DNA of 64,000 bases, taken from IMG/VR virus record IMGVR_UViG_3300028898_000252, positions 29,946 to 93,945 of that record; one strand, given 5' to 3'. Made by a program: the position numbers and the translations under genes. Within the stretch, counting starts at the first letter, position 1. The number at the start of each line of letters is the position of its first letter. The DNA comes from a virus (taxonomy: Duplodnaviria > Heunggongvirae > Uroviricota > Caudoviricetes). Positions 1 to 48,226 of the stretch are shown here, piece by piece. The notes beneath the pieces are model-generated. The model was not told the origin of the DNA. It did no database searches and was given only the letters and a program-made list of their open reading frames with translations.

Positions 1-225
1 CTGGACTGTAATCATCTCCATACTTCGGAACTTTCTTATATTGATATACTTGATGTATTTTTATCATTTTAGTTTCCTTTTATAAACTACTGTAATTAAC
101 AACATGATAAGTTTAAAAGATTTTTTGTTTGACAAAGAAGACGAAATCCCAGAAAAATACTTGAGTCTTGAAAAAAAATAAAACTTGGAATCGAAGATTT
201 TTTATCGAAAAACAATCCAAAACAA

Positions 226-732
226 TTGGATCTTTTAATTCCTCAACTTAAAAACATTATCAAAGATAAGTTTGAGGAATTTGATAAAATTTATACTGTA
301 TATCGTGGAATGGCTTTAAGCCGCAAAGAATTTAAAGAAATTTTCTGGTCTGTATTAACTCCAAAACAAAAAACATTGTTTTATAAAATGGAAGATGGAT
401 TACAAGATCCTGTTGATTTTGAAATCATAAAAGATTTTAAACTTAAACCAAAAAAGGCAAGATATATTCAATCTTGGACTTCTCAAAAAGATGTTGCCCT
501 GAGTTTTACAAGTGGAGGAGAAGTTACCGTGTTGTGTGTTGCCAAAACAGAAACTCCTAATTTGTTTTTTGGAGAACCTGGGGAACTTGTTAAGTTTACC
601 AAAGATGGATTCTCAGAGGAGAAAGAAACAATTTCAATTGGAACAGTTAAGTGTTCTGTTTATTTTGGTCCAAGCGTTGCAAACCTTGGTATTCAAAAAG
701 ATCTTAAAAGCAAGATATTTTCTTCCAAATAA
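226..732 (+). CDS. hypothetical protein; weak resemblance to the R-S-E ADP-ribosyltransferase motif order (YRG, SWTS, acidic patch)
   Basis: 168-aa ORF at the window edge. The true start is uncertain and the track starts at TTG. The motif resemblance is speculative. Confidence 0.45.
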   Translation: MDLLIPQLKNIIKDKFEEFDKIYTVYRGMALSRKEFKEIFWSVLTPKQKTLFYKMEDGLQDPVDFEIIKDFKLKPKKARYIQSWTSQKDVALSFTSGGEVTVLCVAKTETPNLFFGEPGELVKFTKDGFSEEKETISIGTVKCSVYFGPSVANLGIQKDLKSKIFSSK

Positions 733-923
733 GAATCAATATTTACAGTGACACCATTTGCAGTAACAAGGAAAAGGCAGGTGAATAACAATTTCAGCAA
801 GTCCAGATTGATAAATTAGTTTATTGCCGCCTTGAAAAAAAGGTTTATCTTTTTCTCTTTGTCTTTTTCTGAACTCATATCTTTTTTCTGCGTATGGACT
901 CATTGAATCTCTTGTCTTTTTAG

Positions 924-997
924 TGCGAATGATAGGAGTTGAACCTACACTAAACAGTTTCTAAGACTGTTGCCTCTGCCAGTTGGGCTACATTCGC
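924..997 (-). tRNA. tRNA with anticodon UAG (decodes CUN/Leu) but a short class-I variable arm
   Basis: Hand-folded cloverleaf. Acceptor GCGAATG/CATTCGC, anticodon stem ACAGT/ACTGT, loop CTTAGAA, T-arm GTAGG-TTCAACT-CCTAT, discriminator A. The long variable arm expected for bacterial tRNA-Leu is absent. Confidence 0.5.
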
Positions 998-1002
998 AAT
1001 TA

Positions 1003-1323
1003 TTAATAAAACCATTCTAAACCATCTGCTAAAACAACAGATTCATAACCATCATATTCTTCAATTCTAAAAGGACCGTCAATAGTTTGAACTTTTAGTT
1101 GAAAAGCTCCACCCATATAAGGCGGACGAGATGTTGGAAACTTTTCTTTCCAATCTTTTAAAAACTGTTCTTCAAGAATATGGTCTATTTCTTTTCCATT
1201 TTCGATAGCATCAATAAAAGGTTGATATTCAAACATAAACTGTTGTTCTTTTTTTGTTCCACTATACCAAGTGGTCCAACCAGCACCATATCCAGGGCTG
1301 TATAAAATCTTTTTTGTTTTCAT
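1003..1323 (-). CDS. hypothetical protein
   Basis: 106-aa ORF between tRNA genes. Confidence 0.45.
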   Translation of the reverse strand: MKTKKILYSPGYGAGWTTWYSGTKKEQQFMFEYQPFIDAIENGKEIDHILEEQFLKDWKEKFPTSRPPYMGGAFQLKVQTIDGPFRIEEYDGYESVVLADGLEWFY

Positions 1324-1348
1324 TGTTTTTTCTTTTGTTGAATTTTAG

Positions 1349-1420
1349 TTCGGGTAGCAGGATTCGCACCCACATAGCTAGAGTCAAAGTCTAGAGTCCT
1401 AACTGTTGGACGATACCCGA
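1349..1420 (-). tRNA. tRNA-Gln (anticodon UUG), non-canonical T-loop TGCGAAT
   Basis: Acceptor TCGGGTA/TACCCGA is perfect. D-stem GTCC/GGAC. Anticodon stem CTAGA/TCTAG, loop CTTTGAC. The T-loop has G at position 55. Confidence 0.55.
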
Positions 1421-1546
1421 ATAATGCCAGTTTGTTTTTACACAAGATCGCTGGCGTCTTATGGAGATGTTACCATCTCAGTTGGTTTGTATGCCGACTT
1501 TCAATGTATTTTTCTTTTTCCTCCTTGGGATTTTAAAACATGTGAC

Positions 1547-1759
1547 TTACATTCTTCCATAATCATCTTGAAATCGTTTAATATCAGATTCGTCACATGT
1601 TCCATATTGAATTTCAATTATTGTAAGGTCTTCGGTTGCAAGAATTTTATGTTTTTGTAATCTAGGAATAGATATTTGTTTTCCTGCATTAACAGATATT
1701 TCGCTTAGCAAATCAATTTCATCTCCTTGTTTAAGGACACCGCAACCATTTACAACCAC
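1547..1759 (-). CDS. hypothetical small protein
   Basis: 70-aa ORF between tRNA genes. Confidence 0.3.
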   Translation of the reverse strand: MVVNGCGVLKQGDEIDLLSEISVNAGKQISIPRLQKHKILATEDLTIIEIQYGTCDESDIKRFQDDYGRM

Positions 1760-1905
1760 CCAATGTTCATCGCGGCAATTATGAGATTGTAGCGAAATAC
1801 TATGATTAGCTTTTATAAAAAGCTTTTTATTTTAAAATTCAAACCTGTTTCGATTGTTTGAAACCATCCCCAAGGTCTCGTTTCTTTATCATCCATTTTA
1901 TTTTG

Positions 1906-1978
1906 TGCGTCCTCCAAGGATCGAACTCGGGACCAACAGATTAAAAGTCTGCTGCTCTACCAGCTGAGCTAAAGACGC
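1906..1978 (-). tRNA. tRNA-Lys (anticodon UUU)
   Basis: Acceptor GCGTCTT/AGGACGC. D-arm GCTC-AGCTGGTA-GAGC. Anticodon loop CTTTTAA. T-loop TTCGATC. Discriminator A. Confidence 0.8.
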
Positions 1979-1985
1979 ATATGTG

Positions 1986-2378
1986 TCACTCTTTCTTTTT
2001 AATATACCCAGATAAGAAACCATTTTTGTTATCTTCTAGTATTTCAAGAACAGAAAAAATGATTTGAGGTTTCTTGTCTGTTCCGTGATCGTATAAAATG
2101 TTTCCAGAATCAACATCAACACATGCATTGCTGTTACGACCTTCATACACCACATAATAAGTTGATTTCTTTTTCATTACTTGAAAAAGTGTTGATTGAG
2201 TTGGTGATCCAACAAGAAGTTTTCTGCCGCGAAAACAAAGTATAGAACTTTCTTTTGTTTCAAGTTCTTTAAGAACTCGTTTAACAGCATCAAAGACTTT
2301 TTGTCTTGATTTATGTTTCTTTCGAGCTGCGAGAAACTCTCCTGGATTCTTTTTCTTTTCTCTTTTTGAATCTGGCAT
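1986..2378 (-). CDS. hypothetical basic protein
   Basis: 130-aa ORF with a K/R-rich N-terminus, inside the tRNA array. Confidence 0.45.
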   Translation of the reverse strand: MPDSKREKKKNPGEFLAARKKHKSRQKVFDAVKRVLKELETKESSILCFRGRKLLVGSPTQSTLFQVMKKKSTYYVVYEGRNSNACVDVDSGNILYDHGTDKKPQIIFSVLEILEDNKNGFLSGYIKKKE

Positions 2379-2403
2379 TTTATTCTCTACTTGTTGAGTA
2401 TTT

Positions 2404-2479
2404 TGGAGCCCTTTATTGGATTTGAACCAATAACATCCAGTTTACAAAACTGGTGCTCTACCAATTGAGCTAAAAGGGC
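2404..2479 (-). tRNA. tRNA-Thr (anticodon UGU), CCA encoded
   Basis: Acceptor GCCCTTT/AAAGGGC. D-arm GCTC-AATTGGTA-GAGC. Anticodon stem CCAGT/ACTGG, loop TTTGTAA. T-arm ATTGG-TTCAAAT-CCAAT. Discriminator T followed by CCA. Confidence 0.8.
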
Positions 2480-2483
2480 GATA

Positions 2484-2555
2484 TAGCGGGAGGTGGATTT
2501 GAACCATCGTCTCAAGGGTATGAACCTTGCAAGAAAACCACTTCTCCATCCCGCG
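2484..2555 (-). tRNA. initiator tRNA-fMet (anticodon CAU)
   Basis: Architecture matches E. coli tRNA-fMet. 5' CGCGGGA with a 1:72 mismatch (C1:U72). Anticodon stem CAAGG/CCTTG, loop TTCATAC. T-loop TTCAAAT. Confidence 0.65.
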
Positions 2556-2653
2556 ATAGTTTTATTATTTATGGCCACATTCAGTTACGCTCTGATACCT
2601 GAAGTTTTTCAGACTTCCGTGCTGGAACTATCCACACCCTATGGCCGTTTATT

Positions 2654-3004
2654 TTATTCTTCTATATATTCATTAAGAAGATGTTCTGTTAACATAAATG
2701 TAAATTTTTGATGCGTTGATATATCTAACTCATTAATAAAATTCTCATAAACTTTAAGACTGTTGTCACAACTCTCTATACTTTTTTCTGTTTCTTCAAG
2801 TTTCTCTAAAAGAGACTCTGCTTTGTTTTTTAGTTTTCCGTGTACACTAACATTTGAATATTCAAAATATTTTTTAATAACAGAAACAACATAGTCTTTT
2901 GCCCTTAAAGAAAGAACTTCTTCAGAATCAAATGTTCCAAGAAACGTTAGTTTTTCTGAATCGTATTTTGCATATCTTTCGCAAAACAAAGAGTAAAGTT
3001 TCAT
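2654..3004 (-). CDS. hypothetical protein
   Basis: 116-aa ORF. Confidence 0.45.
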   Translation of the reverse strand: MKLYSLFCERYAKYDSEKLTFLGTFDSEEVLSLRAKDYVVSVIKKYFEYSNVSVHGKLKNKAESLLEKLEETEKSIESCDNSLKVYENFINELDISTHQKFTFMLTEHLLNEYIEE

Positions 3005-3019
3005 TTTGGTTTATCCTTT

Positions 3020-3388
3020 TCAAGAAACACTGTTAGCAACACAGATACCATAACTCACACCAAACTTCTTGGCAAGAGCTTTAAGTCGTTGCCGCGTTTT
3101 TCTTTCCACTTTTATTTCTGGAATGGTGTCGTGGTCGCCATCGCCAATGGTAAAGATTTTCGAGGCAGAAACCAAATAAACCGAACCCTCCCCTGTAAAA
3201 GCGTTTCCAGAATGGCTATACCTCAGTCCTTTTTCTTTAAGAAATCCTTCAAATAGATATTCTTCAAGTTTTATCAAAAACTTATGTTTGTCTCCGTCTT
3301 CCGTAAACTTTCTAGGATAAGTTTTTAAAATCTGTTCTTTGGTTACAATAAATCCAAAAAATAATTTTGTTGTGTATGATATGCTCAT
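3020..3388 (-). CDS. hypothetical protein
   Basis: 122-aa ORF. Its stop shares a 4-nt overlap with the start of the upstream NTPase gene. Confidence 0.45.
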   Translation of the reverse strand: MSISYTTKLFFGFIVTKEQILKTYPRKFTEDGDKHKFLIKLEEYLFEGFLKEKGLRYSHSGNAFTGEGSVYLVSASKIFTIGDGDHDTIPEIKVERKTRQRLKALAKKFGVSYGICVANSVS

Positions 3389-4950
3389 GATTGGTATATT
3401 GATTTTTCCGACGTAAAATGAGAAGTTGATTCTTTTTTCTCTTCTTTTTTTCCATCGTGGAAAATAGACCCAACAACTATCTCTGTATCGTTCTTATATG
3501 TAAAAACATGACGTTTTGTTGTTGTTGTTGTTTTACCCCCGAGGGCCTCGTTTTCAAAGGGAAACCAGCGTTGCTTAGTTTCATCTTTTTTAAAAGAAAG
3601 TCTCTTATCAACCTCAGATTTTCCTTTATAAGAAAAGTCTTTTTGAGCTATTTGGATCTGTTTGTTCCAAATTTCTCGAATTTTCTTTTCTTGTTCTTCC
3701 AAGGACATTCCTTTGATATTGATTGTTTCTTCTGGCGTGAACCAATGTTCAGGTCCTTGAGCAAGAGCACCCCCCGCATTTGTAACTTGTTTTGAAATTC
3801 TCGCTCCAAGTTTTCCATTATAGTCTTTGTAACTTATTCTTCCCGCAGCTAGTTCAAAAACTTCTTTATTAGCATAAACCCTTATTTTATGTCCTTTTTG
3901 GTGGTAGTGTGCAACTCTTAAATAAGCTTGCGCAAGTGTTCCATAATTGGGTTCTCCAGGTCTATGATCATGTAAAAATGCCAAATATTGATGAAATCCT
4001 AATTCTGTTGATCTTGTACATGTTTGATTTACTACTAATAAAGTTCTGTTTTTAAATTCTTGAAAATCTGAAACCAAATCTTTATATTGGTCCATCCAAT
4101 CGAATCCATTATAAGCATCAACTGCAAGAATCTTAATATTCTGTTGTGATAGCCTCGCTTGAACTTTTGATTTTCTGAAGGCATTATATAGACCTACGTC
4201 TTTTTCTCCACCAGTTAATCTTAATATTCCTATTGGTTTATCTTGTAAAGTTAACCACCAGTTAATAACTTCTTTTCCATGCTCTGTAAGGTCAGAACCA
4301 TCAAAAAATGAATGTGGCTCAAAAACCAAATCGTTTTCCAAAAACCAACTAGCACCTTTGTATAAAGGATTTGGTTTTAATTCAATTATTTTTGCAACTT
4401 TACCAAAGTCTGAATTTTCGGCTTCTTCGTTTGTTGCTGAATAACATACAAGTTTTATTTTTCGTTCTTTACAAATTTCAAAAATTTTTGAGAAAAGATT
4501 TTTAATTCCTGTTCCATAATCTGATTCGTCAAAATGTATAATCGCATTATTTGGGTTTTCTGTTTGTTTTAACTTTTGCAAAAGATTTCTTGAGTCTTTT
4601 GAAGACGCTAATACAATGACCTCTAATTTATACTGTTTCAATTCTTCAATTTGTTCTTTTGTATCTAGTCGATTTAAAGCTGTAATAAAATAATGTCTAT
4701 TTTGTACATCTTTTTGTGCATATGTTAATGCAACAATTTCAGCTATTTGTCTTTTGCCGCTTTTAACTGGTGCTTTAACTAATACGTTAGAATTATAGTC
4801 TAATGCCTTGGTAATTTCGACCGCACAATCAAACTGTTCTTTTCTATCCTTTTCAAACTCTAAAACATTCCAAGGATGTTGTCTTGGATTATTTTTTTCT
4901 CCTAATTCTGGACGATTATCCCTATACATCGTTGATTTCGTGTCAGTCAT
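3385..4950 (-). CDS. P-loop NTPase with Walker A, Walker B and motif III; terminase-large-subunit-like or SF2-like
   Basis: Walker A APVKSGKRQ. Walker B/DExD IIHFDESDYG. Motif III YSATNE. The 521-aa length and the Walker A-to-B spacing fit a phage terminase large subunit, but this is not proven. Confidence 0.6.
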   Translation of the reverse strand: MTDTKSTMYRDNRPELGEKNNPRQHPWNVLEFEKDRKEQFDCAVEITKALDYNSNVLVKAPVKSGKRQIAEIVALTYAQKDVQNRHYFITALNRLDTKEQIEELKQYKLEVIVLASSKDSRNLLQKLKQTENPNNAIIHFDESDYGTGIKNLFSKIFEICKERKIKLVCYSATNEEAENSDFGKVAKIIELKPNPLYKGASWFLENDLVFEPHSFFDGSDLTEHGKEVINWWLTLQDKPIGILRLTGGEKDVGLYNAFRKSKVQARLSQQNIKILAVDAYNGFDWMDQYKDLVSDFQEFKNRTLLVVNQTCTRSTELGFHQYLAFLHDHRPGEPNYGTLAQAYLRVAHYHQKGHKIRVYANKEVFELAAGRISYKDYNGKLGARISKQVTNAGGALAQGPEHWFTPEETINIKGMSLEEQEKKIREIWNKQIQIAQKDFSYKGKSEVDKRLSFKKDETKQRWFPFENEALGGKTTTTTKRHVFTYKNDTEIVVGSIFHDGKKEEKKESTSHFTSEKSIYQS

Positions 4951-4980
4951 TTTATTACCATAAACTTTTAAAGAAATATC

Positions 4981-5037
4981 AAGAAAGCAAAAAGACTAGT
5001 TTCATTCTCCTTGATTTTAGAAGGAAGTCTTTTTATG
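4981..5037. repeat. tRNA-spacer inverted-repeat element, copy 1
   Basis: AAGAAA(A)CTAG ... TAGAAGGAAGTTT(T)CTTAT. A 9-bp stem AAGAAAACT/AGTTTTCTT flanks a loop of about 28 nt. Confidence 0.6.
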
Positions 5038-5046
5038 GCTTGATAT

Positions 5047-5121
5047 TGGAGCGGCCAGCGAGATTCGAACTCGCAACACTCTGTTTGGAAAACAGAAACT
5101 CTACCGTTGAGTTATGGCCGC
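5047..5121 (-). tRNA. tRNA-Gly (anticodon UCC), CCA encoded
   Basis: Acceptor GCGGCCA/TGGCCGC. D-arm ACTC-AACGGTA-GAGT. Anticodon stem TCTGT/ACAGA, loop TTTCCAA. T-arm GCGAG-TTCGAAT-CTCGC. Confidence 0.8.
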
Positions 5122-5134
5122 AGAAAAAAGTAGG

Positions 5135-5190
5135 AGAGCAAAGAAACTAGTTTTTATAATCCTTTATACTTTAGAAGGAAGTTTCTCTAT
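5135..5190. repeat. tRNA-spacer inverted-repeat element, copy 2
   Basis: Same AAGAAACTAG ... TAGAAGGAAGTTTCT consensus as copy 1. Confidence 0.55.
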
Positions 5191-5454
5191 AGCCTACTAT
5201 GGAAACGTCAATGAACAACAAAACATAAGTTACATGCTTTGCGGCGCTGTTTCATGAGCTTGAACCAATGTCTAGCAACAAAAGAGGGTTTATTTCTTTT
5301 ATTCTAGAGAAAACAGCAAGGGGCATACCTCGATGGAACTCGTACGCCAAGAACATCATTCAAACAGTGTCTCTGTCTTCCATGAACTATAACTTACTTG
5401 AAGTTATTGACGTTCCTAAACCTCAACCCATCTGAGGTTGTACTTTGATACAAG

Positions 5455-5700
5455 AGAGCAAAGAAACTAGATTTCTGAAAAAGGAATAGAAGGAAGTTTC
5501 TTTATCTGTTCTCCAAAACTTACTTAAAATCATTTCTGATTTTAATGTTTGGTTCCTGTTTCTCGGACAAACTGGTTTTTAAACGAAAGTTTAAAAACGA
5601 ACTCTCATCTCCGCAGGCTTTTGATTCTACTTCCATAGAATTGGTTTCCGTGGAACCCACGGTACCTTTTAGCGGTTCCCCCGAGACTTGAACTCGGAAC
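5455..5700. repeat. segmental duplication unit A (about 245 bp; paralog of 6983-7225)
   Basis: Spacer IR element, then the shared stretch ttctccaaaacttac..tttctgattttaatgtttggttcctg..ttctc.gacaa, then gaactctcatctcc.caggcttttgattc, then the hairpin ccgtggaacccacgg followed by TACCTTTTAGCGG, ending at the 3' end of a tRNA. The two copies are about 90% identical. Confidence 0.6.
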
Positions 5701-5745
5701 CTTTTGCTTAACGGGCAAACACTCTACCAGTTGAGTTAGAGAACC
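5673..5745 (-). tRNA. tRNA-Asn (anticodon GUU)
   Basis: Acceptor GGTTCTC/GGGAACC. D-arm ACTC-AACTGGTA-GAGT. Anticodon stem TTTGC/GCAAA, loop CCGTTAA with C at position 33. T-arm CCGAG-TTCAAGT-CTCGG. Confidence 0.7.
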
Positions 5746-5759
5746 ATTTTATTTGTTGG

Positions 5760-5828
5760 TGGGAACCGTTGGATTTGCACCAACATCTCAAGCTTGAGTA
5801 GCCTGTGTTTTGCTTAAACTAAATTCCC
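5760..5828 (-). tRNA. tRNA-like element, degenerate; anticodon loop TACTCAA lacks U33; T-loop TGCAAAT
   Basis: Acceptor GGGAATT/GGTTCCC. A 4-nt D-loop. T-arm GTTGG-TGCAAAT-CCAAC. The anticodon region can also fold as the CTCAAGCTTGAG palindrome. Paralog of 7492-7563. Confidence 0.3.
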
Positions 5829-6102
5829 TTGTTTTGTTTCTGTAAAACAATATCTTTTATTCTTTTGGCCTTTTCCCTGGATGCTCCATAAACAAAAAGA
5901 TAAAAAGAGTTGAAAATGGAGGAATCCAGTACCAAATTGATATTACTATGTTTATGCTTGCCGCGATAAATAAAGTCCAATATCTAAACCTTTTATCTTT
6001 CCATCTTTGAAGAGGACTGCTTACATCTATTGTTGTAATTTTTGGATGTTGCCGCGGAATTTCTATTTTATACGGTTTCCGATATGGATTATCCATTTTA
6101 TT

Positions 6103-6178
6103 TGGTGAACCCGACAGGACTTGAACCTGCAACATTTTGGCTGCAAACCAAACACTCTCCCAATTGAGTTACGAGCCC
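6103..6178 (-). tRNA. tRNA-Ala (anticodon UGC), G3:U70 present, CCA encoded
   Basis: Acceptor GGGCTCG/CGGGTTC carries the G3:U70 Ala identity pair. Anticodon stem TTTGG/CCAAA, loop TTTGCAG. T-arm GCAGG-TTCAAGT-CCTGT. Confidence 0.8.
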
Positions 6179-6183
6179 TTATT

Positions 6184-6708
6184 TTATTGGTAATATTCCT
6201 TTGGTAAACTTACATTTACATTTTTCACTTCAATAATTTCTTTTGCCAAGAAACTTGTATGGCGATAATAGTATACTAAATTACCCATTTCTAAGTCAGA
6301 CCTTTTTACCAAAGTTTTTTCATATTCAATTAATTTTTTAATGGTTGAAAAATTGTTTATATTTTCTTTTAATTCCTTTTGCAAAGTTTTAATAAAACCT
6401 AAACCAACATTAGGATTATTTAAAATATTCCATTTAGCTGTTTTAAGGTCAACTTTACCAGAATAACGATTGCGTTCTCTAAGTGTATAAAAGAAATATT
6501 CTCCATCATCTCTCTTTATACAACAATCTCCACGTCTATATTCATCTTCTCCTCCATAATACGGAAATACTTCTGTTTTAAGAGAATCATCATTGACATT
6601 TTCAATCAAAAAATCAAAACGATTTAAATGCCTTATCAATAATTGTTCAACTATGTCTGTTTCATAGTCAAAGCAATAAATCTCTCCTCCATAGTTTAAC
6701 TGGTACAT
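6184..6708 (-). CDS. hypothetical protein
   Basis: 174-aa ORF between tRNA-Ala and the next tRNA. Confidence 0.5.
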   Translation of the reverse strand: MYQLNYGGEIYCFDYETDIVEQLLIRHLNRFDFLIENVNDDSLKTEVFPYYGGEDEYRRGDCCIKRDDGEYFFYTLRERNRYSGKVDLKTAKWNILNNPNVGLGFIKTLQKELKENINNFSTIKKLIEYEKTLVKRSDLEMGNLVYYYRHTSFLAKEIIEVKNVNVSLPKEYYQ

Positions 6709-6733
6709 CTTTATCTTTTCTTGAGGAATTTAG

Positions 6734-6804
6734 GAGTCAGGAATGGAATCGAACCATTGACCTCGCACTTCCACAGCACGGCTCTACCACTGAGCTACAC
6801 GACT
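6734..6804 (-). tRNA. tRNA-Pro-like (anticodon UGG), imperfect
   Basis: Canonical D-arm GCTC-AGTGGTA-GAGC and T-arm AATGG-TTCGATT-CCATT. The acceptor has one mismatch. The anticodon loop TGTGGAA has G at position 33. There is no spacer nucleotide 26. Confidence 0.4.
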
Positions 6805-6818
6805 CATATAAACACCAA

Positions 6819-6876
6819 GAAAGCAAGAAAACTAGTTTTTTCACCCTTTGAATTTTTAGAAGGAAGTTTTCTTATG
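6819..6876. repeat. tRNA-spacer inverted-repeat element, copy 4
   Basis: agcaagaaaactag ... tagaaggaagttttcttat, lying between tRNA-Pro-like and tRNA-Glu. Confidence 0.6.
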
Positions 6877-6886
6877 GCTTGGTGCT

Positions 6887-6963
6887 TGGTGATCCCAATG
6901 AGATTTGAACTCATATTTCTCATTCTGAAAAAATGGTAGCCTAAACCGTTAGCTGATGGGACC
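6887..6963 (-). tRNA. tRNA-Glu (anticodon UUC), CCA encoded
   Basis: Acceptor GGTCCCA/TGGGATC. Anticodon loop TTTTCAG on a 4-bp stem with one C:A mismatch. T-arm ATGAG-TTCAAAT-CTCAT is perfect. Confidence 0.7.
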
Positions 6964-6982
6964 ATAATAAAACATACAAACG

Positions 6983-7225
6983 AGGAAAGCAAGAAAACTA
7001 GTTTCATTCACATATTGATTTTAGAAAGAAGTTTCCTTATATTGTTCTCCAAAACTTACTCAAAACCATTTCTGATTTTAATGTTTGGTTCCTGCTTCTC
7101 AGACAAGCTGATTATTTCCCAAAAAGGAAATAATGAACTCTCATCTCCACAGGCTTTTGATTCGAAAGTTTTCATTCGAATCGGTTTCCGCGGAACCCGC
7201 AGTACCTTTTAGCGGAGTATGCGAG
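6983..7225. repeat. segmental duplication unit B (paralog of 5455-5700)
   Basis: See unit A. It ends at the 3' end of tRNA-Asp. Confidence 0.6.
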
Positions 7226-7284
7226 AATTGAACTCGCGACGCTCGGATGACAACCGAGTGTTATGACCATTTAACTAATACTCC
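7213..7284 (-). tRNA. tRNA-Asp (anticodon GUC)
   Basis: Acceptor GGAGTAT/ATACTCC is perfect. D-arm GTTA-AATGGTCA-TAAC. Anticodon stem CTCGG/CCGAG, loop TTGTCAT. T-arm GCGAG-TTCAATT-CTCGC. Confidence 0.8.
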
Positions 7285-7432
7285 TAGCAGTCGCCGATTG
7301 TTTTGCACAATCATTTTTGCTTGATTAAACCTTGTCTTATTTATTCGAGCTCGTGTTCCCGATAAAACAAACAAAGTTTGGGTTCATGCACTATTTTGCT
7401 GTTTAAACTAGGCGACTAGTATTGGATACAGG

Positions 7433-7486
7433 AGAGCAAGAAAACTAGATTTCTGAAAATGAATAGAAGGAAGTTTTCTTATTGCC
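7433..7486. repeat. tRNA-spacer inverted-repeat element, copy 6
   Basis: gagagcaagaaaactag ... tagaaggaagttttcttat, immediately downstream of the tRNA-like element at 7492-7563. Confidence 0.55.
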
Positions 7487-7491
7487 TGTAT

Positions 7492-7563
7492 TGGTGAGCC
7501 CCCTTGGATTTGCACCAAAATCTTTCGCATGGGCTGCGAATGTTTCGCTTAAACTATGAGCTC
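7492..7563 (-). tRNA. tRNA-like element, degenerate; anticodon loop AGCCCAT lacks U33; CCA encoded
   Basis: Paralog of 5760-5828, with the same short D-arm GTTT-AAGCG-AAAC and T-loop TGCAAAT. Anticodon stem TTCGC/GCGAA is perfect, but the loop is non-canonical. Confidence 0.3.
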
Positions 7564-8072
7564 TTCTGTTCGCTTAAATTGTCAAAGATCAACTCGTGTG
7601 TTACTTGTTTTGTTTTACCGAGTCTCTTCTTTCCTTCATCTTAGTCACCCTTGAGAGAGTGTCAAGTCGTCTTTTTACGTTGTGTTGAAGGTAGAAGTTA
7701 AATAGTAAGGAAAAATATATTTTCTTGAGTTACAAGAAAAAACTTTTTTGTTTATTTATTTGCTCCAAGCTTCGGACTTGAACCGAAGATTTGGGTATGT
7801 TTTGCCGTTAAACCACTTGGAGTTCCTTGGTTTTTTTAAATGGTCAAGGACCATTCTTGATTTTTTCATATCCTAACAGGAGGGAGATTGAGATTTAGGG
7901 GTTGATTGGTTTTATTTGTATGATTTCTTTTTCCAGGATTTAGTATTTGGCGGTGAAGCCTACCCTGTTTTAGATCACCAGATTGGTCAACCAATCAGCT
8001 GTTTATAGGTTTTCCGTGTAAAGGAATGCCGAGTGGCTACGGCGATATGAAAATCAAGAAAAAAGTTTTAGG

Positions 8073-8663
8073 TTATTGGAAAAGAGAGGAATCAATATCA
8101 AGGTTTAATTCTTTTGAGTTTGCCTCGGCAATTCCAGCTCGAAGGGCAGTTAACTGCGCATTTTTATTTGCGGCGGTTTCAACAATGTCTTTTATTAACA
8201 TCGTACGTTTTGGCCACTCATATTGAGCATTTGTGGCTCCATAGTGAAGTCTTTGGCTATCATAAGGATCTTCTTCTTTTGAAGACTCAGCTTTCCAAAG
8301 TCCTTCCATTCTACCAACGCCACCAATCATTTTGACGGCACTCATCAGTGTCATTCTTTGTTCTTCTCCAAACAAGAAATAAGAAACGGTAATTTGTAAA
8401 TTATATTTGGCTTGGGCCTCTTGAAGAGCACAAATAGAGTTTTCGGTTTTGAGAATATCTTTTTCAATTTCCGAAGGCATTCTCCCTGTTTGGGAAGCTT
8501 TTCGGAAAAATGAGTTTCTGAACTCTCTTAAGAGAGGTTCTTTTCTTGCTTCCCAACGTTTGATAGCTTCTTTTAGTTGATATCCGTTAACTTTCATTTT
8601 TGGTTTCTCTTTCCTTGTCTCTTGCCCCTTCATTCTAAGCACCTGGGGAGTGGTGTCAACCAC
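8073..8663 (-). CDS. hypothetical protein
   Basis: 196-aa ORF, last gene of the minus-strand block. Confidence 0.5.
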   Translation of the reverse strand: MVDTTPQVLRMKGQETRKEKPKMKVNGYQLKEAIKRWEARKEPLLREFRNSFFRKASQTGRMPSEIEKDILKTENSICALQEAQAKYNLQITVSYFLFGEEQRMTLMSAVKMIGGVGRMEGLWKAESSKEEDPYDSQRLHYGATNAQYEWPKRTMLIKDIVETAANKNAQLTALRAGIAEANSKELNLDIDSSLFQ

Positions 8664-8726
8664 CTTTTTTCTTCTCGTTTGTTTTTGAATTAAAATGAAA
8701 TAATATTGTTTCTTGGTTGGAGTGAG

Positions 8727-9179
8727 TTACAGGTCTAACTTATATTTCTCTAAAGAAATTGAATTAAAAAGTTTTGATGGCTGTGTTTTGAAGTCTATTT
8801 GTAATCCACACATAAGAGTCAACTCTTTTCCTTGTTTTGCGGTGTCTGTTTGCCAATAGGTTACCATAACAGGAGAAAGGTTTTTGTTCCAGTGTTTTAT
8901 TGCCGCGATCCAAGTATCCACTGTCTCATTTTTCGATAGTGATTTTCCGTACATTGCCTCAAACAAACCATCTTCTATTTCGACAATAACATCAATGTCT
9001 CTTGGATTAAGAGAACTTAGAATACTTCCAACAAGATATATTTCTTGGTTGTAATATCTTGACCTGATAAATGTTAAGACTTGAACAAGTTTCTTGAGAG
9101 GAATAAAAGAAGATAGGTTTTCTTTTATTGTTGCCTCGCTCAAGGGTGCCCCGCGAGAGAAGCGGCGACAGAGACGCAC
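8727..9179 (-). CDS. minimal nucleotidyltransferase-fold protein (GS-x9-DxD motif)
   Basis: YLVGSILSSLNPRDIDVIVEIED matches the Pol-beta/MNT signature hG[GS]x9-13Dh[DE]h. The annotated N-terminus falls inside a GC-rich element, so the start is uncertain. Confidence 0.5.
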   Translation of the reverse strand: MRLCRRFSRGAPLSEATIKENLSSFIPLKKLVQVLTFIRSRYYNQEIYLVGSILSSLNPRDIDVIVEIEDGLFEAMYGKSLSKNETVDTWIAAIKHWNKNLSPVMVTYWQTDTAKQGKELTLMCGLQIDFKTQPSKLFNSISLEKYKLDL

Positions 9180-15213: not shown

Positions 15214-16164
15214 TTACATACTTGATAGGTCGCCAGGATCTTTCCAACAATCTATATCAAGATAAGCAGTAAAATAATCCACCAAGTCTCCAGTATGAAG
15301 GTCTTCTTTTCTCATCCAAAGAAGAAAAGGCTCATCGAAAACAAGAGGATTTTCTTTTGGCCGAATTGATGTTGCGCATCTCGTTACAGCAACAGCCGCG
15401 GCACTTTTAGCTCTTGCACCATGTTCATTTAATTTAAACTTGGTTTGTTGCAGAGCTTGCGACAAACACATTTCTTCTTCTTTCTCAGAAGAATTCAGTT
15501 TTGCCATAAATGACATTCCAAGCAAATAAGATAGATCTGATTCATAGTTTAGATCAATTTTTGGAATTGTTACAGAAGAATAGTTTTGGTATTCTTTTCT
15601 TTTTACGTTAAACATTTCTTCCGCAGAGATTTCTCTCAAGGTTTTAATTTGTTCTGCCGTGAATGGACCTTTTGCAAGGTACATGCTATCCACAAATTTA
15701 TCATTTTTTTGTTTAAGATCAATTCGAGCATAAATTATATCATCAACGAGAAACGTATCGAAAGAATTTGAAATTTTAATTGAGGGATAAGAAGTAACTT
15801 TGCCTTCTTTTGCAACGATCATGTTGGTCGATTGTGCTTTTTCAACCCATTCAACTAATATATCCATAATAGCAGCGGCACCAAAATCTGTTGGATTTTC
15901 AAATTTATCCAACTTGATATCAAATCCATTATCTGATAAAAACTTGTTTATTTCTTCGTGAGAAAACGAGGCAACACATCTCATTTCTTTTTCAGAAAAG
16001 AAATTCAAGTAACCATTTGTAATATATGGTTTATAAATTCCATTTAAGAACTTTCTTTGCTCTGGAATGATATGTTTCCAGGGAGATGTTGCTTTTCCTG
16101 TAAACTCAATTGCAGATTTTAATGCCGCGACAACAGGCGGCATCACAGACACAGATGAACTCAT
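15214..16164 (-). CDS. hypothetical protein
   Basis: 316-aa ORF. Its start overlaps the stop of the upstream gene by 4 nt. Confidence 0.55.
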   Translation of the reverse strand: MSSSVSVMPPVVAALKSAIEFTGKATSPWKHIIPEQRKFLNGIYKPYITNGYLNFFSEKEMRCVASFSHEEINKFLSDNGFDIKLDKFENPTDFGAAAIMDILVEWVEKAQSTNMIVAKEGKVTSYPSIKISNSFDTFLVDDIIYARIDLKQKNDKFVDSMYLAKGPFTAEQIKTLREISAEEMFNVKRKEYQNYSSVTIPKIDLNYESDLSYLLGMSFMAKLNSSEKEEEMCLSQALQQTKFKLNEHGARAKSAAAVAVTRCATSIRPKENPLVFDEPFLLWMRKEDLHTGDLVDYFTAYLDIDCWKDPGDLSSM

Positions 16165-26757: not shown

Positions 26758-27672
26758 ATGAACCTAAAATCTCAAAAAGAGCTACACGTTGAATTTCTTC
26801 CTTTTCAAAAACTTATAGACTATATTAAAATCGGCGATGCTCTTGGAATGGGATTTGAGTATACTTCAGATAAATTTATAAAAGAAAATCTTTGGAAAGA
26901 AAATACTTTGCCAAAATTTATTCAACATCCATATTGGGCAACCCTTACCCCAGGAATGTATACAGACGATTCTCAAATGAGTATTGCACTTATTAAGTTA
27001 ATGTTAGAAGAAGAAACAACTGAATGGTTTGATGATCGAGTTGTCGGAAGATACTTTCTTTCTGAATTTAAATCAAGCCCTAGACAGGGATATTCGACTG
27101 GTTTGTATAAAGTTTTGTCTACTTCAAAAACAACAAATGAATTTTTGGAACAGATTGCCGCGTTTGGAAAGTCTTCAAAAAATGGCGGCTGTATGAGAGC
27201 TGTCCCAATTGGTTTATTACCTGATTTGGAAATGGTAAAAAAATTTGTAAGATTCCAAGCGGAAACAACCCATTCAGGAACAGGCGTCGATGCAGCAGAA
27301 ATGATTGCTGTTGCGGCATTTGGATTGAAATATAAACTAACAGAAAAAGATAACAAAGTTGATGTTTATGGTTGGGTGAAAAATAACACTTCTTATTTTC
27401 CAGAAATTATCAAAGAACTTAAAAGAGTTGAAGGCTCAAATAATCTCGGTTTATTAACTTCAATTTCAGTGCTAAAATTATTTAGTGAATTTGATTTGAG
27501 GTTAGGATTACATGAACTGATAAGAAGGTGTATTCTTTTAGGTGGAGACACAGATACGGTTGCCGCGATTGCGGCGGGGTTATATGGATGTTGGATACTT
27601 TCAAAAAGTAAAAAACAAAGAAGGGTTTCTTATATAAAAGAAATTAAACCATTGATAAGGTTTGTAAAATGA
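26758..27672 (+). CDS. ADP-ribosylglycohydrolase (ARH/DraG family)
   Basis: GDALGMGFE. YTDDSQMSIAL. GGCMR. GGDTDTVAAIAAGLYG, the classic ARH metal-binding motifs. Confidence 0.85.
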   Translation: MNLKSQKELHVEFLPFQKLIDYIKIGDALGMGFEYTSDKFIKENLWKENTLPKFIQHPYWATLTPGMYTDDSQMSIALIKLMLEEETTEWFDDRVVGRYFLSEFKSSPRQGYSTGLYKVLSTSKTTNEFLEQIAAFGKSSKNGGCMRAVPIGLLPDLEMVKKFVRFQAETTHSGTGVDAAEMIAVAAFGLKYKLTEKDNKVDVYGWVKNNTSYFPEIIKELKRVEGSNNLGLLTSISVLKLFSEFDLRLGLHELIRRCILLGGDTDTVAAIAAGLYGCWILSKSKKQRRVSYIKEIKPLIRFVK

Positions 27673-29678: not shown

Positions 29679-30124
29679 AAGAAACTTTTTCTGTTTCTGT
29701 AACAGGTCACCGCGATTTGTTTCACGATGAAAAAGAAATAGAAAAAAAGTTTTTGAATTTTATTGATATTCAAAAAGGGTTAAATCCCGACAAAGAAATT
29801 GTTGTAAACACAGGAATGGCAGTAGGATTTGATCTTCTTGTTGCCGAGATTTGTCTAAAACAAGGAATAAAATATAACGCCATATTGCCTTTTGAAGATC
29901 ATCTTAAAACCAATGAAATCTTTTGCTTGTTAAAAGAAGCGGCAAACAAAGTTGTGGTGGTCTCAGAAGGACCATATGCGAAATACAAATATTTTATAAG
30001 AGATGTTTGGTTGGTTGATAATGCAAATGTCTTATTTGCATACTTGATTAAACCAGGAAAAAGTGGAACACGATTAACAGTTGAAGAAGCAATAAAAAAG
30101 AAAAAAGAGGTTATTTACTTCTGA
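29675..30124 (+). CDS. SLOG/YpsA-like (DUF1273-like) protein
   Basis: N-terminal MKETFSVSVTGHRDLF and TGMAVGFD resemble the YpsA/DUF1273 SLOG family. The track start 29630 is probably too early. Confidence 0.5.
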   Translation: MKETFSVSVTGHRDLFHDEKEIEKKFLNFIDIQKGLNPDKEIVVNTGMAVGFDLLVAEICLKQGIKYNAILPFEDHLKTNEIFCLLKEAANKVVVVSEGPYAKYKYFIRDVWLVDNANVLFAYLIKPGKSGTRLTVEEAIKKKKEVIYF

Positions 30125-31509: not shown

Positions 31510-31581
31510 GTTTCGCTAGTTCAGCGGTAGAACGGCGGGCTCTAAACCTGCAAGTCATAGGTTCGATTCCTATGCGGAGCA
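31510..31581 (+). tRNA. amber suppressor tRNA (anticodon CUA, reads UAG)
   Basis: Acceptor GTTTCGC/GCGGAGC with two G:U pairs. D-arm GTTC-AGCGGTA-GAAC. Anticodon stem GCGGG/CCTGC, loop CTCTAAA with U33 and A37. T-arm ATAGG-TTCGATT-CCTAT. Discriminator A. No CCA encoded. Confidence 0.8.
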
Positions 31582-31610
31582 CAAACAAAAACATAAAAAG
31601 GAAAACAAGA

Positions 31611-47314: not shown

Positions 47315-48226
47315 ATGAAACCAGCTATAACAGAAAACGGCAAATTCAAAAAGAAACAGAAAGCAATAAATCAATCTTATGGTGGAGAAGAAGATGAAAA
47401 GCTTTTTATGGAATACCACGCAAGTAAAGTATACGACCAAAAAGGCAACCTAGAAAAAAGCAATGAAAAACTTAGAAACCAATTAACCCTCAGAAATCAA
47501 AAACTTGTTAATACTTTTATTTCCCTTATTGGAAATAAAAACAAAGTAGTGGTGAGAAAATATAAAGAAGATCTATTTCAAGAAGGTTTAATTGGATTAT
47601 CAAAGGCAATAGAACATTTTGATCCAACAAGAGGAATAAGGTTTTCGACATATGCAGGACACTGGGTTCTCCAGGCAATTACTTCTTATATCGCAAAACA
47701 ACAATTCGTTGTTGCCATCCCTACCCAGCTTAGATTAGCGTCGAATAAAATTCTTTCTTTTATGAAAGAGAATAAAAAAGAAACAACAGAAGAAATTTCT
47801 TTTGAAGAAAAAGAAGAACTTAAAAAACAATATAAAATACCAGAAAAAATATATCTTGATGCTGTAAAAGAAATAAAATCGGGATTTAATTCTTCAAACG
47901 TTTACAACACAATGGATAAAAGAATTGTTTATTTTGAACAGCCTTTGACGACTATTGCCTCGTCTTCTGCTCAGACAGATTCTTCATTTACTTATGAGCG
48001 GTTTTTAAAAGATAATGACGTTAATGTTTCTTATAACGAACCAATTTCATTATTAAACGAAACCCAAAGTTTAATTTCAACAAGTGAAGATGTGGTTTCT
48101 GCTGTCCATAAAACACTGCTAGAACTTGATCCACTTAAAAGATTAATTTTAATATTGAGGTTCATGGGAATAAAAAATATAGAAAACGAAAAGGAAATAG
48201 AATCAATTGGAACTCAAACAATATGA
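47315..48226 (+). CDS. sigma-70 family RNA polymerase sigma factor (regions 2 to 4.1 recognisable)
   Basis: GLIGLSKAIEHFDPTRGIRFSTYAGHWVLQAITSYI matches sigma70 region 2.1-2.4. The C-terminus LKRLILILRFMGI..EIESIGTQ resembles region 4.1. The ORF stops before a region 4.2 recognition helix. Confidence 0.8.
   Translation: MKPAITENGKFKKKQKAINQSYGGEEDEKLFMEYHASKVYDQKGNLEKSNEKLRNQLTLRNQKLVNTFISLIGNKNKVVVRKYKEDLFQEGLIGLSKAIEHFDPTRGIRFSTYAGHWVLQAITSYIAKQQFVVAIPTQLRLASNKILSFMKENKKETTEEISFEEKEELKKQYKIPEKIYLDAVKEIKSGFNSSNVYNTMDKRIVYFEQPLTTIASSSAQTDSSFTYERFLKDNDVNVSYNEPISLLNETQSLISTSEDVVSAVHKTLLELDPLKRLILILRFMGIKNIENEKEIESIGTQTI

Follow-up and report, generated by a model that had tools for sequence, protein, structure and literature searches.

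Clusters of transfer RNA (tRNA) genes in large phages are usually read only as a supply that serves codon usage or counters host defence. The tRNA cluster of phage T4 reportedly comprises eight tRNAs together with two stable RNAs, species 1 and species 2, encloses a homing-endonuclease gene, and is made as polycistronic precursors that are matured by host ribonucleases (RNases). Hairpins processed by RNase III are known from the early region of phage T7, as are processing stems in ribosomal RNA (rRNA) operons, and the promoter-early stem-loops (PeSL) of T4-type phages shuffle gene cassettes. Here we describe a minus-strand tRNA array in a 64,000-nt stretch of viral DNA (hereafter the window; positions 29,946 to 93,945 of IMG/VR virus record IMGVR_UViG_3300028898_000252). 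Its core is of a known kind, a tRNA array in a giant phage. Above the routine stand a putative punctuation hairpin with an analogue in an unrelated contig, ~160-nt RNAs fused to tRNAs, and tRNA mimics with G at T-loop position 55 (G55) that are linked to tRNAGly-like genes associated with mom. The array suggests two layers beyond tRNA supply, a hairpin that punctuates CCA ends and a family of tRNA mimics, and with moderate confidence we read the region as one that expresses the tRNAs and small RNAs of a very large, low-G+C phage.

Spacer hairpins of the tRNA array

An earlier note on this DNA, drawn from its letters alone, had described a conserved inverted-repeat spacer that appears six times between the tRNA genes. 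Half-site searches over the 64 kb confirmed six copies of ~65-75 nt, all on the minus strand and all within positions 4972-7491, with nothing convincing outside that interval; a two-part spacer pattern found five of the six, against 0.00 expected by chance (shuffled sequences gave none). The copies are IR1 (7426-7491), IR2 (6984-7050), IR3 (6810-6886), IR4 (5453-5514), IR5 (5129-5198) and IR6 (4975-5046). Aligned on the tRNA-sense strand (alignment A2), they share one predicted fold, with z-scores of -1.3 to -5.3, the latter for IR1. In this fold, an outer stem of 6-10 bp is joined through an asymmetric internal loop (3 nt versus 4 nt) to an inner stem of invariant length (10 bp, UAAGAAAACU/AGUUUUCUUG), which is topped by an apical part of 4-5 bp that carries a conserved CUUCCUUCUA.

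Across the six-copy alignment, pairing holds in 92% of cells and both sides have changed in 8 of 17 pairs, a level of pairing and covariation reached by none of 500 shuffles; sliding the partner by 1-3 columns lowers pairing to 43-58%. The outer stems are dissimilar yet complementary (CACCAAG/CUUGGUG, AUAUCAAG/CUUGAUAU, AGUAGG/CCUACU, AUACAGG/CCUGUAU), and the inner stem varies by A-U to G-C exchanges and G-U pairs around an invariant closing U-G pair. Since this U-G pair and the G-U variants would become A-C mismatches on the opposite strand, the structure belongs to the tRNA-carrying transcript. The spacers are two-tier RNA hairpins on the tRNA-sense strand with compensatory changes, and their predicted, covarying stems would place ~20 bp of coaxial double-stranded RNA between cistrons, as in an RNase III-type substrate.

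Short, multi-copy inverted repeats with strain-specific insertions and deletions beside them might also be remnants of an insertion sequence (IS) or miniature inverted-repeat transposable element (MITE), or DNA-level recombination sites with no RNA function. We give this explanation hardly any credence: the six copies share one orientation within 2.5 kb with none in the rest of the 64 kb, the outer stems vary in sequence with complementarity kept, the G-U pairs suit the transcript strand only, no target-site duplications were seen on reading the copies, and searches for homologs gave 0 exact-pattern matches in IMG/VR and no match in 50,697 phage records. Derivation from a known IS or MITE family, which the earlier note had named as the outcome that would overturn its view of the spacers, is thus not what we find; the covarying stems argue against it, as they do against a pure promoter.

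Hairpin placement and a proposed precursor-processing pathway

Where the RNA upstream of a hairpin has an encoded CCA, the hairpin base starts 0-2 nt after that CCA (positions read from the sequence). IR1 lies directly after the CCA of the tRNA-like RNA W2, IR3 extends from the CCA of tRNA-Glu to 9 nt upstream of tRNA-Pro, and IR6 starts at the CCA of tRNA-Gly and precedes an open reading frame (ORF) for a 521-amino-acid protein; IR2 and IR4 follow the structured elements B and A, respectively, which are described below. At the other end, the distance from the hairpin to the tRNA or tRNA-like RNA that follows is 7 nt for IR5 (to tRNA-Gly), 9 nt for IR3 and 8 nt for IR1.

The reading towards which we lean, if not strongly, is that the hairpins serve as processing punctuation in a long precursor. 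The array would be transcribed as long precursors, possibly from a sigma-70-like promoter (TTGACA-16-TAAGAT; 7638-7665, minus strand), the one good candidate of the promoter scan, that lies ~65 nt upstream of W2 and, as a consensus match only (10 of 12 positions), is possibly the start of the array transcript. The base of each hairpin would hold the 3' end of the preceding RNA beside the 5' leader of the RNA that follows, and a double-strand-specific endonuclease of RNase III type would cut at that base. RNase P would then complete the 5' ends, exonucleases would trim the CCA-encoding RNAs to their final 3' ends, and an RNase Z-type cut would complete the RNAs without CCA.

The same design recurs in contig L018, an unrelated contig of 30% G+C that we reached via the tRNA-like family described below. 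There, each tRNA or tRNA-like RNA has CCA at its end and runs straight into a two-tier hairpin (NNNUAACG...CGUUANNN), whose outer pairs covary and whose internal loop is asymmetric; 6-9 U-rich nt then lead to the next tRNA. The hairpin sequence is unrelated to IR1-IR6, and L018 is an independent analogue of the CCA-abutting design. The L018 array (3237-3860) is made up of odd tRNAs and tRNA-like RNAs, among them an 'Asn-AUU' with G33, another with a 5-nt loop and the T-loop UGAAAAU, and a member of the tRNA-like family; its hairpins hold a UUCAUC motif.

Several points weigh against the punctuation proposal. We infer both the single precursor and its cleavage at the hairpins. The six hairpins are paralogs of one genome with no homolog found elsewhere, so their covariation rests on few events, and the outer stem of IR2 (GGAGA/UUUCC) and IR4 (GGAGA/UCUCU) is only weak and shifted. 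Searches of the ~95 window ORFs revealed no gene for RNase III, RNase Z or a CCA-adding enzyme, so host enzymes must be assumed. U-rich tracts follow three of the hairpins (IR5, IR3 and IR6), and partial attenuation at the hairpins is possible; a sigma-factor-like protein is encoded in the window, and phage promoters of another type are conceivable.

The U-rich tracts and the sigma-like gene also speak for a role in transcription, in which the hairpins would act as attenuators, terminators or promoter-bearing stem-loops like the T4 PeSL and each unit would be transcribed separately. The variation of hairpin-bounded cassettes between strains points the same way, as does a TGCTT motif in the conserved 3' half (CTAGTTTTCTTGCTYTC), which we take to resemble the T4 MotA box. 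We nevertheless consider such a role unlikely. The 7-9 nt from hairpin to tRNA at IR1, IR3 and IR5 are too few to hold a -10 box and a start site, and on this spacing both the sigma-70 and the MotA-type promoter fail as readings of the spacer. The conserved 3' arm, moreover, covaries with the 5' arm, unlike a promoter, and the stems are AU-rich with internal loops, none of the six being listed by a terminator scan. The earlier note had left processing and termination as alternative functions of the spacers: their position fits processing, and the AU-rich stems that escape the terminator scan speak against termination.

tRNA-like RNAs with altered anticodon arms

Alongside the hairpins, the array contains four tRNA-shaped RNAs in which the anticodon arm is abnormal, replaced or missing. 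Two of them, with G55 T-loops and abnormal anticodon loops, had been recognized in the earlier note (at 5760-5828 and 7492-7563), as had a truncated stub at about 7762-7822. Both tRNA-like elements were borne out as W1 (5757-5828) and W2 (7492-7563), the stub was located at 7759-7822, and a third related RNA, W3, was found at 7285-7417, where it abuts tRNA-Asp; all lie on the minus strand. ARAGORN labels W1 'Glu-CUC' and the Rfam tRNA model gives it 45 bits; W2 is undetected by ARAGORN and Rfam, even at E<=10. With R1, a covariance model of the W family, W1 scores 85 bits and W2 79 bits, and the model also finds W3 (40.7 bits; fold z-score -4.7) and the stub (24 bits) in the window.

W1 and W2 share an identical D arm (UAGUUUAAGCRAAAC; UAGUUUAAGCAAAAC in W1) and T arm (GGUGCAAAUCC), and both have A73-CCA. 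The loop at the anticodon position is UACUCAA with A33 in W1 and AGCCCAU with G33 in W2. Features of decoding tRNAs are absent from both: there is no U33, the T-loop UGCAAAU lacks U54-U55-C56, and the D-loop AAGCA is without G18-G19. In strain L003, a close relative of the window described below, the W1 loop reads UACCCAA, with a different middle base in the triplet (CUC versus CCC). W3 has a perfect 7-bp acceptor stem, the T-loop UGCAAAA and a ~75-nt hairpin that replaces the anticodon arm. The stub retains an acceptor stem, a D arm and a canonical T arm without an anticodon arm, and an AU-rich hairpin and a U-run follow it.

In phage-like contigs whose G+C content ranges from 30 to 64%, a search pattern built from the two conserved arms of W1 and W2, which makes the D arm and T-loop of its matches invariant by construction, recovered further RNAs of this design (one or more in each of L014/L015, L017, L018 and L019, and two copies in L016). 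Outside these arms the acceptor and anticodon-arm stems of the family covary, with changes on both sides in 14 of 21 pairs (0/500 shuffles). Because the "anticodon" loop ranges from 4 to 7 nt across members, they are not decoders. The same pattern gave one weak match, probably due to chance, in a set of one representative genome per species, and BLAST of W1 against cultured phages returned only stem-level similarity to normal tRNA-Phe. G55 T-loops occur as well in two relatives that share 59-64% identity with the window in the 521-amino-acid protein (L005 5790-5860 and L009 10060-10155): one is a 'tRNA-Ser(cga)' with UGCAAAU and a D-loop of the type of the window's tRNA-Gln, the other a tRNA-like RNA with UGCAAAC and a long insertion.

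High-G+C members of the family carry G1:C72, C2:G71, G3:C70 and U73, with CCC or UCC in short loops. The bacterial Gly identity set is G1:C72, C2:G71, G3:C70 and U73. At the corresponding positions W1 has G1:C72, G2:C71, G3:C70, A73 and CUC (CCC in L003), and W2 has G1:C72, A2:U71, G3:C70, A73 and CCC, so that neither holds the full Gly set with NCC, C2:G71 and U73. The true tRNA-Gly(UCC) of a related phage has the D arm UAGUUUAAAGGUAAAAC. Judged by sequence, W1-W3 are probably non-decoding tRNA mimics derived from tRNA-Gly, and we reject the tRNA-Glu call for W1 in favour of membership in this non-decoding family. It is precisely the "elbow" of acceptor, T and D parts that is conserved, and for this reason the mimics may provide a handle for RNase P, RNase Z or a CCA-adding enzyme in the precursor.

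tRNAGly-like genes linked to mom

A 2026 study established Mom as an enzyme that moves glycine from Gly-tRNAGly onto N6 of DNA adenines (PMC13219725). A T-loop that reads UGC or UGU where UUC is usual, and so lacks pseudouridine at 55, is the hallmark of staphylococcal non-proteogenic tRNAGly, which binds EF-Tu poorly and supplies the Fem peptidoglycan transferases (PMC7826273). Such T-loops are present in W1, W2 and W3 (UGCAAAU or UGCAAAA) and in the tRNA-Gln of the array (UGCGAAU), and in contig L014 a Mom-family gene (Pfam PF25680, E = 7e-51) has an element of the W family 18 nt downstream.

To place this neighbourhood in context, 80 Mom loci (L025-L104) were taken from IMG/VR and searched with R1. 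A tRNAGly-like gene was found in 41 of them, always on the mom strand: 16 within 50 nt downstream of mom, 11 within 1 kb downstream and 14 at 1.2-2.5 kb upstream, the loci being mutually related, so that the 41 are not independent events. All 23 distinct sequences have G1:C72, C2:G71, U73 and CCA. Their loops hold UCC or CC and are often irregular, position 55 is G, C, A or U, and ARAGORN calls some of them tRNA-Gly(tcc) and some "tRNA-???" with 2- or 4-nt anticodons, missing many. Among cultured phages, Psychrobacter phage vB_PmaS_Y8A (OQ059336.1) carries two tandem G55 copies of this R1 family in an unannotated gap after a Mom-like gene (L105 3138-3205 and 3210-3278; OQ059336.1 about 7786-7926); three others with Mom homologs have no tRNAGly-like gene within 2.5 kb. 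The report on Mom does not mention tRNA genes near mom and its discussion treats host tRNAGly as a resource that Mom harvests (PMC13219725), and a jumbo-phage survey that discusses Mom draws no link to tRNA genes. As far as the literature examined shows, the association between Mom and degenerate tRNAGly-like genes is unreported. By their sequence and position, these genes could encode Gly donors for Mom.

By extension, W1-W3, and perhaps the G55 tRNA-Gln, might be non-proteogenic tRNAs that are charged by a host synthetase, excluded from the ribosome and used as amino-acid donors by a phage transferase encoded elsewhere, with the UGC T-loop and defective anticodon loop keeping them from EF-Tu and the ribosome. 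The T-loop hallmark, the L014 neighbourhood, the use of Gly-tRNAGly by Mom, the 41 loci with their many irregular loops and variable position 55, and the tandem copies of Y8A all favour this idea, as does the CCA encoded in W1, W2 and most of their relatives, unlike many true tRNAs of the array. We regard it as possible, if rather doubtful, for the RNAs of the window themselves. With A73 and without C2:G71, W1 and W2 lack the bacterial Gly identity set, and the middle base of the W1 loop varies between strains. D-aminoacyl-tRNA deacylase (DTD) is reported to be far more active on Gly-tRNAAla than on Gly-tRNAGly, a difference set mainly by the discriminator base (PMC6097841), and we infer that A73 would expose glycine to DTD. 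Searches with tblastn and Pfam that covered the window and the 10 kb past its left end brought up no gene of the Mom, Fem or GNAT type. Finally, under R2, a model built from the Mom-linked members only, the score of W1 (55 bits) does not stand out from that of ordinary tRNA-Gly (53-60 bits); W2 receives 46.9 bits, the window's tRNA-Gly and tRNA-Thr 53.2 and 48.1 bits, and L016/L019 72-74 bits. The link to Mom explains W1-W3 only partly. The donor idea addresses what the tRNA-like members do and can hold together with hairpin punctuation of the precursor.

Elements A and B and other structured RNAs

Two of the tRNAs without an encoded CCA run directly into a structured RNA of ~160 nt. Element A (5515-5672, minus strand) begins directly after the discriminator base of tRNA-Asn, and its paralog, element B (7051-7212, minus strand), directly after tRNA-Asp. 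The hairpin that the earlier note had seen abutting two tRNA 3' ends is real, but it is merely the first helix of this duplicated element. A and B share 81-88% identity and have four helices in common that are formed by different sequences, for example GUUUUUAAAC/GUUUAAAAAC versus AUUAUUUCC/GGGAAAUAAU and CCGUGG/CCACGG versus CUGCGG/CCGCGG. Their predicted folds are series of simple hairpins, with z-scores of -3.1 for A and -3.8 for B. No Rfam family, ribozymes included, matched either element at E<=5 over positions 1-9000, and exact patterns of the two gave 0 matches in IMG/VR. We read A and B as small structured RNAs that would be released from the precursor.

Their start exactly after the discriminator of two CCA-less tRNAs, together with their high degree of structure, recalls the theta ribozymes, which hold the same position in gut phages (PMC10879173). 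A and B might accordingly be self-cleaving ribozymes of the hepatitis delta virus (HDV)-like theta type that free the 3' ends of tRNA-Asn and tRNA-Asp, a reading that we consider very unlikely. Even the permissive threshold brought up no Rfam ribozyme family, and the sequence could not be threaded by eye onto an HDV-like nested double pseudoknot or a hammerhead core. The trailer CUAAAA also follows tRNA-Leu and tRNA-Gln, which have no element of this type, and L003 has an unrelated 110-nt stem-closed element in the place of B. HDV-like, hammerhead, T-box and RNase P RNA readings were each rejected by eye, as the conserved cores do not fit.

The non-coding interval between IR4 and IR5 (5199-5452, minus strand) is a further candidate of ~250 nt (fold z-score -3.2). 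Two strain differences in L003 turn GGCGUAC into GGUAUAC opposite GUAUGCC, and because both substitutions preserve pairing this interval is probably another structured RNA. Long-range complementarity is also seen in the non-coding stretches 2560-2650 and 7565-8072 (minus strand), for example GGCCAU...AUGUGGCC before the initiator tRNA; neither has an Rfam match, and more small RNAs may lie inside them. A pseudoknot resembling the preQ1-I riboswitch occurs at 7821-7860 (minus strand), immediately 5' of the tRNA-like stub. It was rejected as a preQ1-I riboswitch at 26.3 bits against a gathering score of 39, with a loop of 6 nt where a full-size one has 11. The two tRNAs that elements A and B adjoin (Asn and Asp) are those of the queuosine family, which may be coincidence. 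Permissive Rfam searches over 1-9000 and 7280-8080 returned only tRNAs and this sub-threshold match, and returned nothing on the alternative L003 element and L014.

Cassette exchange between strains

Strain L003 is 99.7% identical to the window in the flanks and differs within the array by whole cassettes. Element B is replaced by the unrelated ~110-nt stem-closed element after tRNA-Asp (L003 5103-5212); an ORF for 255 amino acids (5388-6155), with no Pfam match and possibly a homing endonuclease, sits as an insertion precisely at the junction of IR2 and tRNA-Glu; and another tRNA-Ala (6398-6520) stands in place of ORF174, tRNA-Ala and ORF92. The breaks between the two strains fall at the ends of tRNAs and the borders of hairpins, and W1 shows the single change in its loop. 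Within the window, a module composed of a tRNA-like RNA, tRNA-Asx, the ~160-nt element and a hairpin occurs twice, at 76-88% identity (families D1, D5, D7 and D8). The duplicated module and the L003 cassette differences together support growth of the array by unit duplication, as the earlier note had suggested, and by exchange. Ten loci that encode relatives of the 521-amino-acid protein (L004-L013, 50-65% identity) have no equivalent array and no match to the spacer or to elements A and B.

Decoding tRNAs of the array

The same 12 minus-strand tRNAs at 923-7284 are called by ARAGORN and by the Rfam tRNA model, which scores them at 39-75 bits against a gathering score of 29. The earlier note had counted eleven and had proposed covariance models as the test that might reject its hand-folded tRNAs. 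The Rfam model accepts 12, including the odd 'Glu-CUC' at 5757-5828 that we assign to the W family, and the other eleven, the initiator-type tRNA among them, are genuine tRNA genes. CCA is encoded in tRNA-Thr(UGU) (2404-2479, 75.4 bits), tRNA-Gly(UCC) (5047-5121, 68.3 bits), tRNA-Ala(UGC) (6103-6178, 58.9 bits, with G3:U70) and tRNA-Glu(UUC) (6887-6963, 46.1 bits). tRNA-Pro(UGG) (6733-6804, 39 bits) is without CCA, as are tRNA-Asn(GUU) (5672-5745, 62.3 bits) and tRNA-Asp(GUC) (7212-7284, 67.8 bits), both with the trailer CUAAAAGG. The CUAAAA trailer is common to four CCA-less tRNAs (Leu, Gln, Asn and Asp). tRNA-Lys(UUU) lies at 1905-1978 (66.7 bits) and tRNA-Gln(UUG), which has U1:A72, at 1348-1420 (55.7 bits), both called by ARAGORN as well. 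For tRNA-Gln, the earlier note was right about the G55 T-loop (TGCRAAT type, here UGCGAAU), shared with 5757-5828 and 7492-7563; its D-loop is without GG, and the anticodon loop, which had been thought abnormal, is a normal one of 7 nt.

The tRNA(CAU) at 2484-2555 (49 bits), 5 nt upstream of tRNA-Thr, begins with CGCGGG and has a C1xU72 mismatch, A11:U24 and the T-loop UUCAAAU. It aligns over its full length with the Escherichia coli metZ initiator tRNA at 82% column identity, and its anticodon stem has two of the three G:C pairs (A29:U41, G30:C40, G31:C39). By these features it is an initiator-type tRNA, which bears out the suggestion that the array brings its own; phage-borne initiator tRNAs are ordinary.

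The tRNA with anticodon UAG (923-997, 75 nt, 61.7 bits) has a 5-nt variable loop, a Leu-type D arm with a 3-bp stem and a long loop, A73, no encoded CCA and a CUAAAA trailer. Bacterial tRNA-Leu has a long variable arm, and the short arm had led to the suggestion of charging with something other than Leu. The short arm stands. Mischarging is not indicated, because the Leu-type D arm and A73 are accompanied by precedents in cultured phages: the annotations of Enterococcus phage EFDG1 ('tRNA-Leu-TAG') and of Mycobacterium phage Rey (whose record does not state the anticodon) include short tRNA-Leu genes of 74-76 nt. Contig L017 likewise has a short tRNA-Leu beside its W-family member. From these comparisons, the short tRNA-Leu(UAG) appears to be a recurrent phage tRNA type with no sign of a new charging identity.

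Source phage and genomic context

The window has a G+C content of 32-37% and encodes rIIA-like, rIIB-like, radical-SAM, ADP-ribosylglycohydrolase, sigma-70 region-2 and HNH endonuclease proteins; it also encodes serpin-like, Macro, weak PTH2-like and SPFH proteins (for these and others, e.g. ORFs 15214-16164, 26758-27672 and 47315-48226). Sequence identical to that of the window is found in a 61-kb Logan contig and in a contig from an NCBI metagenome assembly. The 521-amino-acid ORF inside the array (3385-4950, minus strand) shows P-loop and DExD-like motifs by eye and has zero Pfam, PHROG or PDB sequence matches. Its product is recorded on contigs in the 0.2-1 Mb class, and homologs with 30-65% identity are located on contigs of 300-500 kb; these sizes and the rIIA/rIIB homologs identify the source as a very large, uncultured, low-G+C phage, in which a tRNA array is expected. 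Searches of the window and the array against 50,697 GenBank phage records (megablast and blastn) matched tRNA bodies only.

Two tRNAs lie apart from the array: a class-II tRNA-Ser(AGA) on the array strand, ~7 kb past the left end of the window (L109 3284-3371), and a tRNA with a CUA anticodon, of amber-suppressor type, at 31510-31582 (plus strand, Rfam 60 bits). The latter led us to consider stop-codon recoding, which we rejected for the window, as it fits the standard code; TAG is the stop in only 5 of its 83 long ORFs. Recoding of genes outside the window is possible, given this tRNA. Within the array, a cupin-like gene (1547-1897, minus strand; MDDKETRPWGWF...HNCRDEHWVVVNG...) is split by a -1 frameshift at an A5 run near 1818-1822, which could be a sequencing error, a pseudogene or programmed slippage.

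Comparison with known systems

The recurrence of the hairpin design with another sequence in L018 points to a general, directly testable solution for maturing dense tRNA arrays. The tRNA mimics are missed or mislabelled by standard tRNA finders, and their T-loop is that of the single tRNA class known to be set aside for non-ribosomal use. If the association with mom holds, some phages would bring their own glycine carrier for DNA hypermodification and spare the host tRNAGly pool, and "odd" phage tRNAs would be worth screening as cofactors of aminoacyl-tRNA-dependent enzymes.

Like the staphylococcal non-proteogenic tRNAGly (NP-tRNAGly; PMC7826273), W1 and W2 combine a UGC T-loop and a D-loop without G18-G19 with a C-rich triplet of Gly type, which would imply that they are kept out of translation; they differ from it in having A73, no C2:G71, a purine at 33, CCC or CUC instead of UCC, and no Fem-type enzyme nearby. 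They also resemble the Mom-linked elements, one of which (in L014) has their exact D arm and T-loop, and which share irregular anticodon loops and often a base other than U55; the full Gly identity set is found in those elements and not in W1 or W2, and there is no Mom homolog in the window or 10 kb beyond. Theta ribozymes (PMC10879173) compare with A and B as structured RNAs abutting the 3' end of a phage tRNA, in a phage that also has a tRNA with a CUA anticodon. In contrast, A and B have no HDV-like fold or Rfam match, are about three times longer, and follow Asn and Asp, not Met, Sup or Leu tRNAs.

Repeated stem-loops that bound small cassettes variable among close phages are common to the window and the T4 PeSL, but the window hairpins fit no sigma-70 promoter inside or after them, and their stems covary as RNA. 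With the T7 and rRNA processing stems they share repeated intercistronic placement, about two helical turns and a lower stem set off from an upper one by an asymmetric internal loop; in the window, cleavage is predicted only, the sequence is unrelated and AU-rich, and the CCA of the flanking tRNA abuts the stem. The T4 cluster is similar in that tRNAs on one strand are mixed with stable small RNAs and with small or mobile ORFs in a phage with rIIA and rIIB, and elements A and B are comparable in position to the extra stable RNAs of that cluster. A covarying hairpin that would punctuate the array, non-decoding mimics with G55 and a ~160-nt RNA fused to two tRNAs are, in this comparison, features of the window alone.

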